This document shows positions 14,117 to 18,889 of a DNA stretch of 64,000 nucleotides, in pieces. The translations under genes and the position numbers were made by a program. The notes under the pieces were generated by a model. The model did no database searches, had not been told where the DNA came from, and saw only the letters and a list, made by a program, of their open reading frames with translations. Positions within the stretch are counted from its first letter, which is position 1. Each line of letters begins with the position of its first letter. Source of the stretch: a bacterium (GTDB lineage Bacteria > Electryoneota > JAOADG01); NCBI GenBank assembly GCA_963681965.1, contig OY820579.1, positions 1,120,001-1,184,000 of the forward strand, given 5' to 3'.

Positions 14117-14140
14117 GTAGGGGCGTATAGCAATACGCCC
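14117..14140 (+). repeat. GTAG-type REP, copy 1
   Basis: GTAG-GGGCGTATAGCAATACGCCC; one mismatch to the RAYT-flanking REP. Confidence 0.9.
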
Positions 14141-14199
14141 GAAATAAAATGAATAATACTTGCAAAGAAGTTCTATTTTATTGTTAGTAGGTTTGAATA

Positions 14200-14835
14200 G
14201 TGGCAAAAAGCAAATTAAAATTGATTGAAATAATCACAGTCATATTATCTGCAATTGCAATATTAGTTGCGGGTTACAGTGTATGGGTGACCAAACAAAC
14301 ATCGATAGAGACCGCTAAAATTGCTGAAAAAGTGGCTCGTGAAACTACCGAACTACAACTTAAAAAACAGATGGCACAATCGATATTTGATAAGTATTAC
14401 ACTTTGTTACCAAAAATAGATAACCTTAGAAAAAAGACAGAGAGCTTAAGAAATAGAATTAACGTAATGAATTCAGAGAGTATAACCGGGTTAAATATAG
14501 AGTACTTTGATGATGCGAGAATGAGTGAATTAGATTCTATTATTGGCAACATCGCAGCACAACTACCTTCGTTGAGCGATTCTGCTGAGATGAGAACAGT
14601 AAATTTATGTAAATCTCGTTTAGATACGATTAAATTTATTGTTGATGATCGATACAAAGTCATCTCTAACTATAGTGAACCAGTGAATCGAGAAAGAGCT
14701 GTTAAATTGTTTCCAATTGATGTTAAGAACATGTTGGGGTATTGTTCTGAAGTAGATAGTTGTTGTGATGCAATAGCCAAAAACTTGCGAAGCAAAAAGG
14801 ATTACATCGAGTTATCGTTAATGAGTAAACAGTAA
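14200..14835 (+). CDS. AT-rich hypothetical protein (N-terminal TM, coiled coil), cargo between inverted REPs
   Basis: 211-aa ORF; TM IITVILSAIAILVAGYSVWV; spot count of 16 G+C in 60 nt at 14401-14460. Confidence 0.7.
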   Translation: MAKSKLKLIEIITVILSAIAILVAGYSVWVTKQTSIETAKIAEKVARETTELQLKKQMAQSIFDKYYTLLPKIDNLRKKTESLRNRINVMNSESITGLNIEYFDDARMSELDSIIGNIAAQLPSLSDSAEMRTVNLCKSRLDTIKFIVDDRYKVISNYSEPVNRERAVKLFPIDVKNMLGYCSEVDSCCDAIAKNLRSKKDYIELSLMSKQ

Positions 14836-14854
14836 GAAGTGTTAGATAAAACCC

Positions 14855-14878
14855 GGGCGTATTGCCATACGCCCCTAC
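14855..14878 (-). repeat. GTAG-type REP, copy 2 (inverted)
   Basis: GGGCGTATTGCCATACGCCC-CTAC. Confidence 0.9.
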
Positions 14879-14973
14879 TGAGATTTGATAGAATTGGGCA
14901 AAGCTGTTGCCCGCGTGTGTATTGAGCAAACAGGCATCATATATGCCTCTACGAAGCAACGTAGGAATTGTAA

Positions 14974-16482
14974 ATGCAACTTAGACCAGATGAAATTACC
15001 TCGATCCTCAAGGAGCGAATCCTCTCCTTCGAATCGCAGGTGAAAATGGACGAAGTGGGGCGTGTCCTCACGGTGGGCGACGGTATCGCCCGCATCTACG
15101 GCCTTGAAAACTGCCTCGCCGGCGAATTGATCGAATTCCCGGGCGAAGTATACGGCATGGCGTTGAACCTCGAAGAAGACAATGTCGGCGTCGCGCTGTT
15201 CGGCAGCGACGAGAACATTAAAGAAGGCGACATTGTCAAACGCACCGGTCGCGTCGTCGACGTACCCGTCGGCCCCGAACTGTGCGGTCGCGTGGTCAAT
15301 CCACTCGGATTCCCGATCGACGGCAAAGGTCCCATCGACGCCAAGCAGCGCAACCCGGTCGAGCGTAAAGCCACCGGCGTTATCACGCGCCAGCCGGTGA
15401 AAGAGCCGCTGATGACCGGTATCAAAGCCATCGACGGTATGATCCCGATCGGTCGTGGACAACGCGAATTGATCATCGGCGACCGTGGTACCGGCAAGAC
15501 CGCTATCGCAGTCGACACGATCATCAATCAAAAAGGGCAGAACGTCTATTGCATCTACGTGGCAATCGGTCAGAAAGGCTCGACCATCGCCAAGGTGGTC
15601 AAGACGCTGCAGGATCACGGCGCAATGGAATACACTACGGTGATTTCCTCGACTGCCGTCGAAACTGCGCCGATTCAGTACATTGCCCCGTTCGCCGGTG
15701 CCGCCATGGGCGAGTATTTCCGCGACAAGGGTATGCACGCGCTGGTGATTTACGACGATCTTACCAAACACGCCTGGGCTTATCGCCAGTTGTCGTTGTT
15801 GCTCCGACGTCCACCGGGACGCGAAGCCTATCCGGGTGACGTGTTCTATCTGCACTCGCGCTTGCTCGAACGTGCGGCGAAGCTCTCCGATGCCCTTGGT
15901 GGCGGTTCGTTGACGGCACTCCCGATCATTGAAACGCAAGCCGGCGACGTTTCGGCGTACATTCCGACCAACGTGATTTCGATTACCGACGGTCAGATCT
16001 ACCTCGAACCCGACCTGTTCTATTCCGGCATTCGTCCGGCAGTAAACGTCGGTATTTCGGTTTCGCGAGTCGGTTCCAGTGCGCAATATCGCGCCATGCG
16101 CGCGGTCGCAGGGTCGATGCGACTCGACTTGGCACAATTCCGCGAACTGGCGGCATTTGCTCAATTCGGCAGCGATCTCGATGCTTCCACCAAACAGCAG
16201 TTGACACGCGGCGAGCATTTGACCGAATTGCTGAAGCAAGGTCAATACATGCCGTGGTCGCTCGAACGACAGGTGGCGATCATGTTTGCCGGAACGCAGG
16301 GTCTTGCCGATAATATTCCGATTTCGGCGTTGCGGAAATGGGAATCGGAAATCATCTCGTATCTCGAGAGCAATCATGGCGACTTGATGAAGGAAATCGT
16401 CGATACAAAGCTTTTGAATGAAGCGCTGAAGACCATGCTGAGAGCAGCGATCGAGTCGTTTAACACTACTTTTGTCGTGTAA
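14974..16482 (+). CDS. atpA: F1 ATP synthase subunit alpha
   Basis: GDRGTGKT Walker [25 protein letters not shown]. Confidence 0.99.
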
Positions 16483-16487
16483 TCGCT

Positions 16488-17351
16488 ATGCCATCACTCA
16501 AACAAATCAAACGGCGGATCAGCAGCGTTAAATCGACGCAACAGATCACCAAGGCGATGAAAATGATTGCCGCGGCGAAACTGCGCCGTGCCCAAAACAA
16601 CATGCTTTCGGCACGACCGTATTCGCACCGCTTGCGGGATACGATTGCCGAAATGGCGGCGCGCACGACCGAATCGCATCCACTGCTCGAAGTTCGTGAC
16701 CCGAAAAATGTCGGATTCGTCGTGGTTGCTTCGGATCGCGGTATGGCGGGCAGTTTCAATGCGAATGTGATCAAACATGCGGTTGCTGCCTACAAGCAGC
16801 ACGAAAATGCCGACAATCGCTACCTGATCACGGTAGGTCGCAAGACGACCGACTTTTTTACCAAGCGCGGGTACAACGTCATCTCCAAGCACCTCGATAT
16901 CTTCCCCGATCCGACGCTAGAGTCATCACGACGGATTGGTGAACGGATTATCGATCTGTACAAGATGGAGACGTTGGGTCTTGACCGGGTCTACTTGGTG
17001 TACAACGAATTCAAGAATGTTGCGCAGCAGCAAGTGATCGTCGAGCAACTGCTTCCGGTCGTTCCGGCAAAACTCGATAGCCCGATTCATCAGGATTTTG
17101 AATTCGAACCGGATCCCATGACGATTCTCGATGTCATTCTTCCACAATATATCGATGTGGAAATCTGGCATGTACTGCTGGAATCGTTTGCCGCGGAAAT
17201 GGCGGCGCGAATGACGGCGATGGAGAATGCGACCAAGGCGGCGACCGATCTAATCAAGTCGTTGACGCTGCAATACAACAAAGCGCGGCAGGGAGCGATC
17301 ACGAAGGAGCTGCTCGAAATTGTCGGCGGCGCCGAGGCGTTGAAGGGGTAA
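16488..17351 (+). CDS. atpG: F1 ATP synthase subunit gamma
   Basis: QITKAMKMIAAAK and ARQGAITKELLEIVGGA motifs. Confidence 0.98.
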   Translation: MPSLKQIKRRISSVKSTQQITKAMKMIAAAKLRRAQNNMLSARPYSHRLRDTIAEMAARTTESHPLLEVRDPKNVGFVVVASDRGMAGSFNANVIKHAVAAYKQHENADNRYLITVGRKTTDFFTKRGYNVISKHLDIFPDPTLESSRRIGERIIDLYKMETLGLDRVYLVYNEFKNVAQQQVIVEQLLPVVPAKLDSPIHQDFEFEPDPMTILDVILPQYIDVEIWHVLLESFAAEMAARMTAMENATKAATDLIKSLTLQYNKARQGAITKELLEIVGGAEALKG

Positions 17352-17793: not shown

Positions 17794-18074
17794 TCGACAT
17801 CTCGGAGAAGCATCTGGAGATTGTCAAGGCAATCCTTCGCGAATGGTTGCCAAATTACGAAATTCAAGCATTTGGATCGCGAGTAACTGGTAAGGCGAAA
17901 CCGTATTCCGATCTTGATTTGGCAATCGTCTCGGATGAACGAGTGCCGTTTCGGCAAATTGCGATGGCGTGTGCGGCATTCACCGACTCCGATCTCCCGT
18001 TTCGAGTCGATCTAGTAGAACGGTGTAAAATCAAGGATTTTCCTATTGAACCGACGGAAGTGATAGTCATGTAG
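17790..18074 (+). CDS. HI0073-like minimal nucleotidyltransferase
   Basis: FGSRVTGKAKPYSDLDLAI and SDLPFRVDLV motifs; ATGA overlap. Confidence 0.92.
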   Translation: MIDISEKHLEIVKAILREWLPNYEIQAFGSRVTGKAKPYSDLDLAIVSDERVPFRQIAMACAAFTDSDLPFRVDLVERCKIKDFPIEPTEVIVM

Positions 18075-18243
18075 TTTTCTGTGTCAATCGTGTGGTAGAA
18101 GTCCGGTAACCTATTCAGGTATCGAATTGCACGTCGATCACAAGATTCCGTTTTCGCTGGGTGGAAGAACAATCACCGAGAACTTAGAAACGAAGTGTTC
18201 GGATTGTAATTTGGGTAAGAGAAATCGATTTATTGAACAGTAG
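18067..18243 (+). pseudogene. HNH endonuclease domain remnant with no ATG/GTG/TTG start upstream of its first CxxC
   Basis: Hand translation from 18082: CQSCGRSPVTYSGIELHVDHKIPFSLGGRTITENLETKCSDCNLGKRNRFIEQ*; in-frame TAG at 18064-18066 upstream; absent from the ORF track. Confidence 0.8.
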
Positions 18244-18263
18244 GGGCGTATGGCAATACGCCC
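18240..18263 (+). repeat. GTAG-type REP, copy 3
   Basis: GTAG-GGGCGTATGGCAATACGCCC. Confidence 0.92.
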
Positions 18264-18276
18264 GCATCTTGTGAGC

Positions 18277-18804
18277 ATGGAAAACAAGAGCCATTTCATT
18301 CAACGTCAATCGATGCGTCAATCCATTTTGGATTATTCGGTGGGGTTCTTTTTCATCACAATTTGTACGGATCGACGCCGGTGCTATCTTTGTCGCATTC
18401 GCAACGATGAAGTCGCACATAGTTGGATTGGTCAAATCGTCGAAGAAGAGTTGAAAAAATCGACCTTGATCCGATCCGAATTGATCCTTGACAAGTATGT
18501 AATCATGCCGAATCATCTTCACATGATCTTAGGCATGAATCGCGATATTCCATTTGGATCAATCAAAAGCTTTACATCGCCTGCCAAAAATTTTGGCGCG
18601 TTTATTCGTACTTTGAAAGCGGTGACAACAAGACAGATTCGAGAACGAATCGGAAAATCCGATTTCATCTTATGGCAAAGGAACTTCTACGATCACAGCA
18701 TTCGGAATGAGGACGATTATCGCAAAACGATTCAATACATCGATCTGAATCCATCGAGATGGAGTTGTGATCGAGAGAATCCGGTTTTGATTGGAAGAGA
18801 ATAA
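18277..18804 (+). CDS. REP-associated tyrosine transposase (RAYT/TnpA-REP, Y1 HUH family)
   Basis: DYS..FFITICT, YVIMPNHLHMIL (HUH), WQRNFYDHSIRN and YIDLNP (catalytic Tyr); ORF can extend to ATG 18250 inside the REP. Confidence 0.93.
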   Translation: MENKSHFIQRQSMRQSILDYSVGFFFITICTDRRRCYLCRIRNDEVAHSWIGQIVEEELKKSTLIRSELILDKYVIMPNHLHMILGMNRDIPFGSIKSFTSPAKNFGAFIRTLKAVTTRQIRERIGKSDFILWQRNFYDHSIRNEDDYRKTIQYIDLNPSRWSCDRENPVLIGRE

Positions 18805-18818
18805 AGAATTCAGAGAAC

Positions 18819-18842
18819 GGGCGTATTGCCATACGCCCCTAC
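18819..18842 (-). repeat. GTAG-type REP, copy 4 (inverted)
   Basis: GGGCGTATTGCCATACGCCC-CTAC, identical to copy 2. Confidence 0.92.
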
Positions 18843-18889
18843 TGAATAGCGAGATCGCTAGTCAGAATTTCATGATCGATCGTGCGAAA

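Follow-up and report, generated by a model that had tools for sequence, protein, structure and literature searches.

Can the transposase of a repetitive extragenic palindrome (REP) system mobilise an ordinary gene, or does a pair of REPs on either side of a gene have another origin? The question arises in a 64,000-nucleotide stretch of the Electryoneota contig OY820579.1 (hereafter the window), where an ATP synthase operon contains four copies of one GTAG-footed hairpin. Two of them form an inverted pair around a gene for a REP-associated tyrosine transposase (RAYT), and the other two form an inverted pair around an AT-rich orphan gene. The initial annotation of the window regarded the second pair as the ends of a gene cassette moved by the RAYT. 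We favor a different reading, to which we assign a probability of about one half: the transposase gene and its flanking REPs were acquired recently, and its REPs then gave rise to local copies in the two spacers that flank a foreign gene already in place.

Two inverted REP pairs and the genes they enclose

A search of the window for the GTAG-footed 24-mer, with up to 3 mismatches allowed, returned exactly four matches, at 14117-14140 (+), 14855-14878 (-), 18240-18263 (+), and 18819-18842 (-), while 100 dinucleotide shuffles of the window returned none. The same four sites were found with a shorter query comprising the 12 nucleotides (nt) of foot and stem (at most 1 mismatch; 0.07 expected). 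Three of the four copies are identical over 27 nt (CAGTAG...G). Copy 1 matches the others over 25 nt at 96%; its loop reads AGCA instead of GGCA, and two bases ahead of the foot also differ. Over the 24-mer, this agrees with the annotated three identical copies and one copy with a 1-nt change in the loop. The two right-hand copies have 28 nt in common. When folded as single-stranded DNA (ssDNA), every copy forms a stem of 8 bp closed by a loop of 4 nt (-9 kcal/mol, z -3.1 to -4.4).

Along the window the copies follow each other in the order + - + -, and the GTAG feet point outward in both pairs, which is the arrangement that had been annotated, at the same positions. The arms of the pair around the RAYT gene (18238-18264 and 18818-18844) are 100% complementary over 27 nt, and those of the inverted pair around the orphan gene (14117-14141 and 14854-14878) are 96% complementary. 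Inside each pair there is one open reading frame (ORF) only, at 14200-14835 and at 18250/18277-18804, respectively. The spacer between the orphan-gene REPs measures about 712 nt and contains an ORF of 211 amino acids (aa), from which the REPs are separated by 58 nt on the left and 18 nt on the right. For the RAYT gene, the corresponding gaps are 12 and 13 nt if translation starts at ATG 18277; the alternative start, ATG 18250 inside the REP loop, would yield 184 aa.

The two REP-bracketed units are 3.4 kb apart, and all four copies fall within 4.7 kb. Elsewhere in the window (59 kb) no copy was found, and the REP family is therefore either low-copy or locally clustered. Beyond the 25 to 28 nt of the REP itself, no similarity between the two units was detected, neither in the inner nor in the outer flanks. 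Since only the REP is common to both units, the hairpin alone was copied and not a larger module.

Judged by its sequence, the enclosed transposase is a divergent Y1 HUH protein of the RAYT/TnpAREP type. It matched the NCBIfam model REP_Tyr_transpos with an E value of 1.2e-18 (67.4 bits, below the cut-off of 80), and it also stayed below the cut-offs of the Pfam family Y1_Tnp (21.7; cut-off 23) and of the NCBIfam IS200 model (19.5 bits; cut-off 55). The Pfam model aligns only partly with most subfamilies of class 2, the class of TnpAREP (PMC6006769; here and below, statements on cited papers refer to the available parts of their text). Homologues were plentiful, with 654 of 718 candidates at E ≤ 1e-5, and several carry the source name "REP element-mobilizing transposase RayT." The closest matches at >80% query coverage were 39-43% identical.

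In an alignment with 13 homologues, the HUH motif (H-L-H, within NHLH) and the tyrosine motif WQRNFYDH of the window protein are in register, and 18 of 18 invariant columns are retained, including NHxH, WQ, and H140. Among near-invariant tyrosines, Y138 is retained as well, and another is replaced by phenylalanine at position 25. The alignment supports the earlier description of the 18240/18842 pair as enclosing only a RAYT gene with an intact HLH motif and an intact putative catalytic tyrosine motif. Together with its flanking REPs, the gene is a REPtron as defined in PMC3333891 and PMC3733652. Both the RAYT and the REPs are new, divergent representatives of already known RAYT/REP systems.

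The 14117/14878 pair, as also annotated, encloses only a foreign-looking, AT-rich gene. The interior of the unit has a GC content of 32.7%, compared to a median of 47.3% for 712-nt stretches of the window, and is the lowest of the coding stretches; the only other stretch at ≤36% GC is the noncoding region after dnaA. A single-sequence AlphaFold model of the orphan protein was all-helical (mean predicted local distance difference test score [pLDDT] 79.4). The protein belongs to no Pfam family, gave only noise against NCBIfam (E ≥ 0.047), matched nothing but itself among 5.8 billion clusters, and had no relative besides itself in a HMMER search of 1.84 billion representative proteins. The sole nonself HMMER match (P0123) was a eukaryotic protein with BRCA2 repeats and was discarded as spurious. 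Furthermore, a tblastn search with the gene against phage and plasmid records gave no match, and Foldseek searches with the model against PDB and BFVD returned nothing at E ≤ 0.001, the best results being generic helical bundles. A weak PADLOC match to DruC (E 2e-5, 21 bits) was treated as coiled-coil bias and is a lead at most, and the top ESM Atlas score, 0.90 to unnamed viral clusters, was within the range reached by shuffled proteins. The gene was probably acquired horizontally.

Proposed recent REPtron arrival and local REP multiplication

The homology data are in line with a young REPtron. Relatives of the AtpG protein were found in 7 clusters at 74-85% identity, the nearest at 85% and six more down to 74%, whereas the best RAYT match was at ≤43%. 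The nearest sampled relatives thus have no orthologous RAYT in their assembled sequence, which fits a recent acquisition of the REPtron. Together with the REP-free 59 kb, this matches the pattern published for Marinomonas, in which REPs are concentrated beside tnpAREP and which was read as a recent arrival followed by local multiplication (PMC8266576). Local multiplication of REPs beside a recent RAYT is also a simpler account of the locus than a gene cassette.

In this reading, the REPtron lies among other accessory genes that have collected in two gaps of the operon, atpH-atpA and atpG-atpD. The two extra REPs would be products of short-range RAYT activity and may have persisted at the sole tolerated sites nearby, the two longest noncoding spacers, which would happen to flank the AT-rich orphan gene that had arrived earlier. 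We infer that the gene came first and the REPs later and that the RAYT was the maker of the copies.

The composition of the operon bears on this scenario. Its order is that of an F-type ATP synthase, atpF, atpH, inserts, atpA, atpG, inserts, atpD, and atpC. A 97-aa ORF, two tandem MNT-HEPN pairs, and the unit with the orphan gene occupy the first gap. In the second, a HEPN-type (NTase_sub_bind) and MNT pair is followed by an HNH remnant that lacks a start, by the REPtron, and by a HicB-like gene (Table 1). All inserts have the same direction as the operon and a GC content below that of the atp genes. Eight accessory ORFs (the 97-aa ORF, the three HEPN/MNT pairs, and the HicB-like gene) and the HNH remnant are REP-free, and therefore a foreign gene can enter these gaps without REPs.

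Some further details of the inserts were noted. The two tandem MNT-HEPN pairs are paralogues, with 84% identity across 167 nt of their 5' parts. The HNH remnant takes its stop codon from the TAG in the foot of REP copy 3; stop codons supplied by GTAG feet of REPs have been noted before (PMC3733652). The remnant retains CxxC ... HVDH ... CxxCN, and its top NCBIfam match, to the HNH part of IscB, was weak (20.5 bits). The HicB-like gene probably starts at ATG 18873, the listed ORF from 18791 overlapping the REP, and no HicA is visible beside it. Two more short GC-rich palindromes, of the GGGGCTTCAGCCCC and GGTTCGCGAACC types, are located at 13950-14030, past the second HEPN gene and ahead of REP copy 1; a repeat search detected no repeats of either type elsewhere in the window.

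Table 1. Features of the ATP synthase operon and its inserts, in window coordinates
Feature	Position	Strand	Remarks
REP copy 1, left edge of orphan-gene unit	14117..14141	+	GTAG foot, 8-bp stem, loop AGCA
REP copy 2, right edge of orphan-gene unit	14854..14880	-	27 nt, same sequence as copies 3 and 4
REP copy 3, left edge of REPtron	18238..18264	+	27 nt
REP copy 4, right edge of REPtron	18818..18844	-	27 nt
Orphan ORF, 211 aa, GTG start, 33.8% GC	14200..14835	+	Hydrophobic N-terminal helix, then all-helical bundle
RAYT/TnpAREP-like Y1 HUH gene	18277..18804	+	175 aa from ATG 18277
atpH (OSCP/delta)	11603..12127	+	Last core gene ahead of inserts
97-aa ORF, then MNT-HEPN pairs 12483-13180 and 13238-13935	12174..13935	+	No REPs
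atpA (14974-16482) and atpG (16488-17351)	14974..17351	+	Core genes between both REP pairs
HEPN-type (NTase_sub_bind) and MNT nucleotidyltransferase pair	17386..18074	+	No REPs
HNH-domain remnant, no start codon	18067..18242	+	Frame opens within MNT gene 3' end
HicB-like antitoxin gene	18873..19180	+	Directly after REP copy 4, overlaps atpD start
atpD and atpC	19134..21082	+	Operon end

According to the initial annotation, a cassette would be refuted if the REP occurred between genes at many places, whatever those genes are. Such a distribution is what we found for the REP core (20 specified bases, free loop) in other genomes. A scan of the GTDB representatives, one genome per species, gave at least 127 loci with this core. 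The window's genome is not among the 127 listed, blastn of the window against all of these (1e-10) gave no match, and the orphan gene is present in none of the 127.

The following descriptions of these loci hold among the matches listed. Their hosts belong to Cyanobacteria, Planctomycetota, Chloroflexota, Bacteroidota, Zixibacteria, Atribacterota, Desulfobacterota, candidate-phyla-radiation groups, Gallionella, and others. After removal of overlaps, at least 141 distinct sites in at least 125 loci were counted; 66 of the 141 are two-footed, perfect palindromes of 28 nt, and the other 75 have a single foot, as do the copies in the window. In 78 loci of ≥2 kb, most sites are intergenic and within ~200 nt of gene ends. 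We assigned a Pfam family (E ≤ 1e-5) to 82 of 130 neighboring or containing ORFs; about 70 of the 82 are housekeeping or metabolic (LysRS, LexA, MreB, PPDK, H+-PPase, AtpC, PriA, RibD), and about 12, judged by their family names, are related to defence, toxin-antitoxin systems, or mobile elements. Occurring mostly as solitary copies between genes and beside housekeeping ones, the REP core is placed in these genomes irrespective of gene content. A RAYT homologue was within reach at 4 of the 127 loci (78 nonduplicate loci with ~2 kb of flanks).

Several peculiarities of the core and its hosts were observed in the same set. Its commonest form elsewhere is the two-footed 28-nt perfect palindrome with the loop TGCA, and several loci are situated at contig ends, as assembly repeats do. 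Identity of a REP core across phyla is unusual, REP families being usually described as lineage-specific. In a member of the Geobacteraceae (L027:1468-2024), the core is found 66 nt past atpC, at the end of another ATP synthase operon. The core also occurs in frame within long ORFs, for example in PriA between the 3'BD and helicase domains (L069:1429-3714) and in a type I restriction R subunit, Lgt, and a radical-SAM protein (L043:300-2573, L009:1843-2796, and L050:1881-2510); these in-frame cores in family-assigned ORFs recall published intragenic REPs. In three of the four RAYT homologues adjacent to REP cores, a 28-nt REP palindrome is part of the RAYT frame just past the HUH motif (L026:1691-2293, L002:2054-2770, and L083:30-554) and encodes peptides such as RGVLQYAPT. 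The length of the post-HUH loop is highly variable in the RAYT alignment, and in the window RAYT this loop is short and without a REP peptide. By loose pattern matching, REP-like post-HUH peptides were seen in 42 of 119 database homologues of the RAYT (P0004-P0122).

Several observations weigh against a purely local spread of REPs. If two REPs were placed at random, and in either orientation, among ~14 nearby spacers, they would fall into adjacent spacers with their feet outward in only ~4% of cases; this is a rough estimate, and it rises if long spacers are favored. The same tight geometry is seen in both REP pairs, and no other coding stretch of the window looks as foreign as the DNA between the orphan-gene REPs. 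Furthermore, gene-scale pairs of the REP core recur elsewhere, with at least 8 spacings of 465-2710 nt. Of four pairs with readable interiors, two hug one gene within 19-75 nt, a Fic gene (L067) and a flavodiiron-type gene (L030). At L001/L002, two small membrane-protein genes are located between REPs directly upstream of a RAYT; the pair at L036 is in direct orientation, with only a doubtful ORF inside. Three more gene-scale pairs (L092/L093, L105/L106, and L122/L100) were covered with flanks of 300 nt. Finally, the order of events is not observed directly.

Other explanations of the second REP pair

The strongest of the rival readings is the one closest to the initial annotation, and we consider it unlikely. 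The stretch from REP to REP (14117-14878) would be a non-autonomous gene unit akin to a REPIN, a pair of inverted REPs, and would be mobilised in trans by the neighboring RAYT. The enzyme would bind the REP with the 5' GTAG and cut nearby as well as at CC/TAC (the slash marks the cleavage position) of the inverted REP ~740 nt downstream; the cut ends would be joined as a single-stranded circle, which would then be reinserted. The tight bracket with the geometry of the RAYT's own flanks, the near-identity of the REPs, which suggests a recent origin, and the foreign composition of the interior are consistent with such a unit. In addition, the right-hand REP copies read CCCC/TAC, which makes the mechanism conceivable. 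The TnpAREP of Escherichia coli binds REPs with a 5' GTAG as ssDNA and cleaves C/T, including that in the CTAC of an inverted REP, at a distance and with strand transfer; this makes or rearranges REP copies, and a model with an excised circle was proposed for bacterial interspersed mosaic elements (BIMEs) (PMC3333891). The single genes hugged at L030 and L067 and the membrane-protein genes beside the RAYT at L001/L002 also speak for this possibility.

On the other hand, an inverted REP alone was neither bound nor cut (PMC8266576), and the spacer of ~712 nt cannot fold as one long REPIN hairpin. The genes enclosed elsewhere differ in kind, and one of them resembles a housekeeping gene. The protein, phage, plasmid, and REP-locus collections searched contained no second copy or homologue of the orphan gene, and the RAYT, REPIN, and REPtron literature searched contained no report of a mobile gene between REPs. 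There is no evidence for movement of REPtrons as units (PMC6006769); the word "passenger" is absent from the available text of PMC8266576 and PMC6006769, as is "cargo" from that of PMC6006769. The lineage of the window is thinly sampled (nearest AtpG at 85%), and the absence of other copies of the orphan gene is therefore weak evidence either way. Of the annotated HUH-based gene capture, the RAYT-type enzyme, the GTAG REPs, and the REPtron are present, but no second copy or homologue indicates that the unit is mobile. The general proposition that RAYTs can move genes, with inverted cognate REPs a gene length apart forming a mobilisable single-gene cassette, seems equally doubtful. Should it hold, the gene-hugging REP pairs in the window, those around the Fic and flavodiiron-type genes, and those beside a RAYT, in unrelated phyla, would be footprints of an unrecognised single-strand route of gene shuffling based on a REP core that is conserved across phyla.

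According to another reading, which we regard as quite improbable, the space between atpA and the HEPN gene was first occupied by a short REP-iREP doublet of the BIME or REPIN type, whose linker afterwards received the foreign gene. The REPs would then be a landing pad and not transposon ends. Some insertion sequences target REPs, and short-spaced arrays of the REP core do occur in other genomes (at least 12 spacings of 37-168 nt in at least 6 loci). Inverse REP doublets with variable linkers are common, and the linkers hold RAYT cleavage sites (PMC3333891). However, there is no evident mechanism for inserting one promoterless ORF; no insertion sequence ends, integrase, or target duplication were found at the inner REP edges; and the window does not contain any short doublet of the REP.

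It is similarly improbable that the REPs were retained for a function of the hairpin in RNA or DNA, such as insulation or stabilisation of transcripts or relief of supercoiling around the inserts of an essential operon, in which case the pairing of REPs around single genes would be functional and not a footprint of transposition. The inserts are co-oriented with the operon, so that transcription must cross them. GTAG REPs are mostly found between codirectional or convergent genes, downstream of ORFs, and have been proposed to be RNA elements; that one REP foot provides a stop codon is also in line with their description (PMC3733652). Against a hairpin function, no REPs accompany the operon's three toxin-antitoxin pairs or its HicB-like gene, and scans of the window for intrinsic terminators (13 found versus 12.1 expected) and promoters (11 versus 13.1) were at chance level. 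Moreover, the conservation of the REP sequence across phyla points to a sequence-specific protein rather than to a generic role of the hairpin. The window gave no match in Rfam and tRNA scans.

A decayed copy of the REPtron was rejected as the source of the orphan-gene unit, which has nothing similar beyond the REP and was also negative in a tblastn search with the RAYT.

Relation to known systems and other features of the window

In the literature searched, a gene-sized REP doublet is undescribed, and the one reported here is a single, unreplicated instance. The REPtron resembles that of E. coli yafM (PMC3333891), in which a Y1 HUH gene, apparently single-copy as well, is located between inverse GTAG-footed hairpins. 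It differs in having one REP per side rather than BIME arrays, with 4 copies in 64 kb, in its position inside the ATP synthase operon, and in the presence of a second inverted pair around a nontransposase gene. With the REPtrons Ma and Mb of Marinomonas sp. MWYL1 it shares REPs near the RAYT and small perfect palindromes, but the nearby copies there are not described, in the available text, as enclosing a gene in RAYT-like geometry (PMC8266576). The window RAYT is also only distantly related to any sampled RAYT (≤43% identity over >80% of the length). As to gene content, some E. coli strains have a toxin-antitoxin operon in place of the REPtron locus (PMC6006769), and in Thauera, genes for exopolysaccharides (EPS) flanked by GTAG arrays were interpreted in terms of regulation (PMC3733652).

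The orphan-gene unit shares with REPINs the two inverted REPs; mobilisation of REPINs has been attributed to a single-copy RAYT that acts in trans (PMC3116915, PMC3337134). REPINs are short, noncoding, and multicopy, whereas the unit comprises 762 nt with a 211-aa ORF and has no other copy in the window. IS200/IS605 elements and their non-autonomous derivatives resemble the system in that their Y1 HUH enzyme is related, their hairpins are subterminal, and their chemistry takes place on single strands. Their ends, however, are formed by two distinct hairpins of one strand and not by an inverted pair of one hairpin. Some members of the IS200/IS605 family carry passenger genes. Integron cassettes often consist of a promoterless AT-rich orphan ORF and an attC hairpin that is recognised as ssDNA; each has one attC, is recombined by a tyrosine recombinase integrase, and is found in arrays at attI. 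By analogy, the window unit may be likened to them as a single AT-rich orphan ORF bounded by hairpin-forming sites; the layout with one attC, the tyrosine integrase, and the attI array are all absent at this unit.

Outside the operon, the following features of the window were noted. At 42483-44432, a 470-aa ORF that reads like dnaA (its translation was read by eye) is followed by ~540 nt of very AT-rich noncoding DNA. This AT-rich stretch is a candidate replication origin, and the GC skew changes from positive to near zero at 42-44 kb. A tandem array with a 54-nt period (28331-29242; 13 overlapping 270-nt registers, up to 96% identity) presumably corresponds to an 18-residue repeat in a coding region. 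A run rich in GGC/GGT at 31931-32041 represents a glycine-rich coding repeat, and a 37-nt motif occurring 7 times between 56031 and 58665, ~290 or 570 nt apart, suggests a protein with repeated domains.

The role of RAYTs and the spread of REPs and REPINs are still unsettled. A low-copy REPtron with two extra REPs is a simple natural system in this respect, and it offers a candidate 762-nt substrate for RAYT excision or transfer between distant REPs. If the RAYT can move the unit, REPs would have to be counted, alongside attC sites and IS200/IS605 ends, among the single-strand hairpin signals by which genes are moved. Otherwise, this would be an ordinary REPtron of recent arrival, in an operon with an unusual load of toxin-antitoxin genes.

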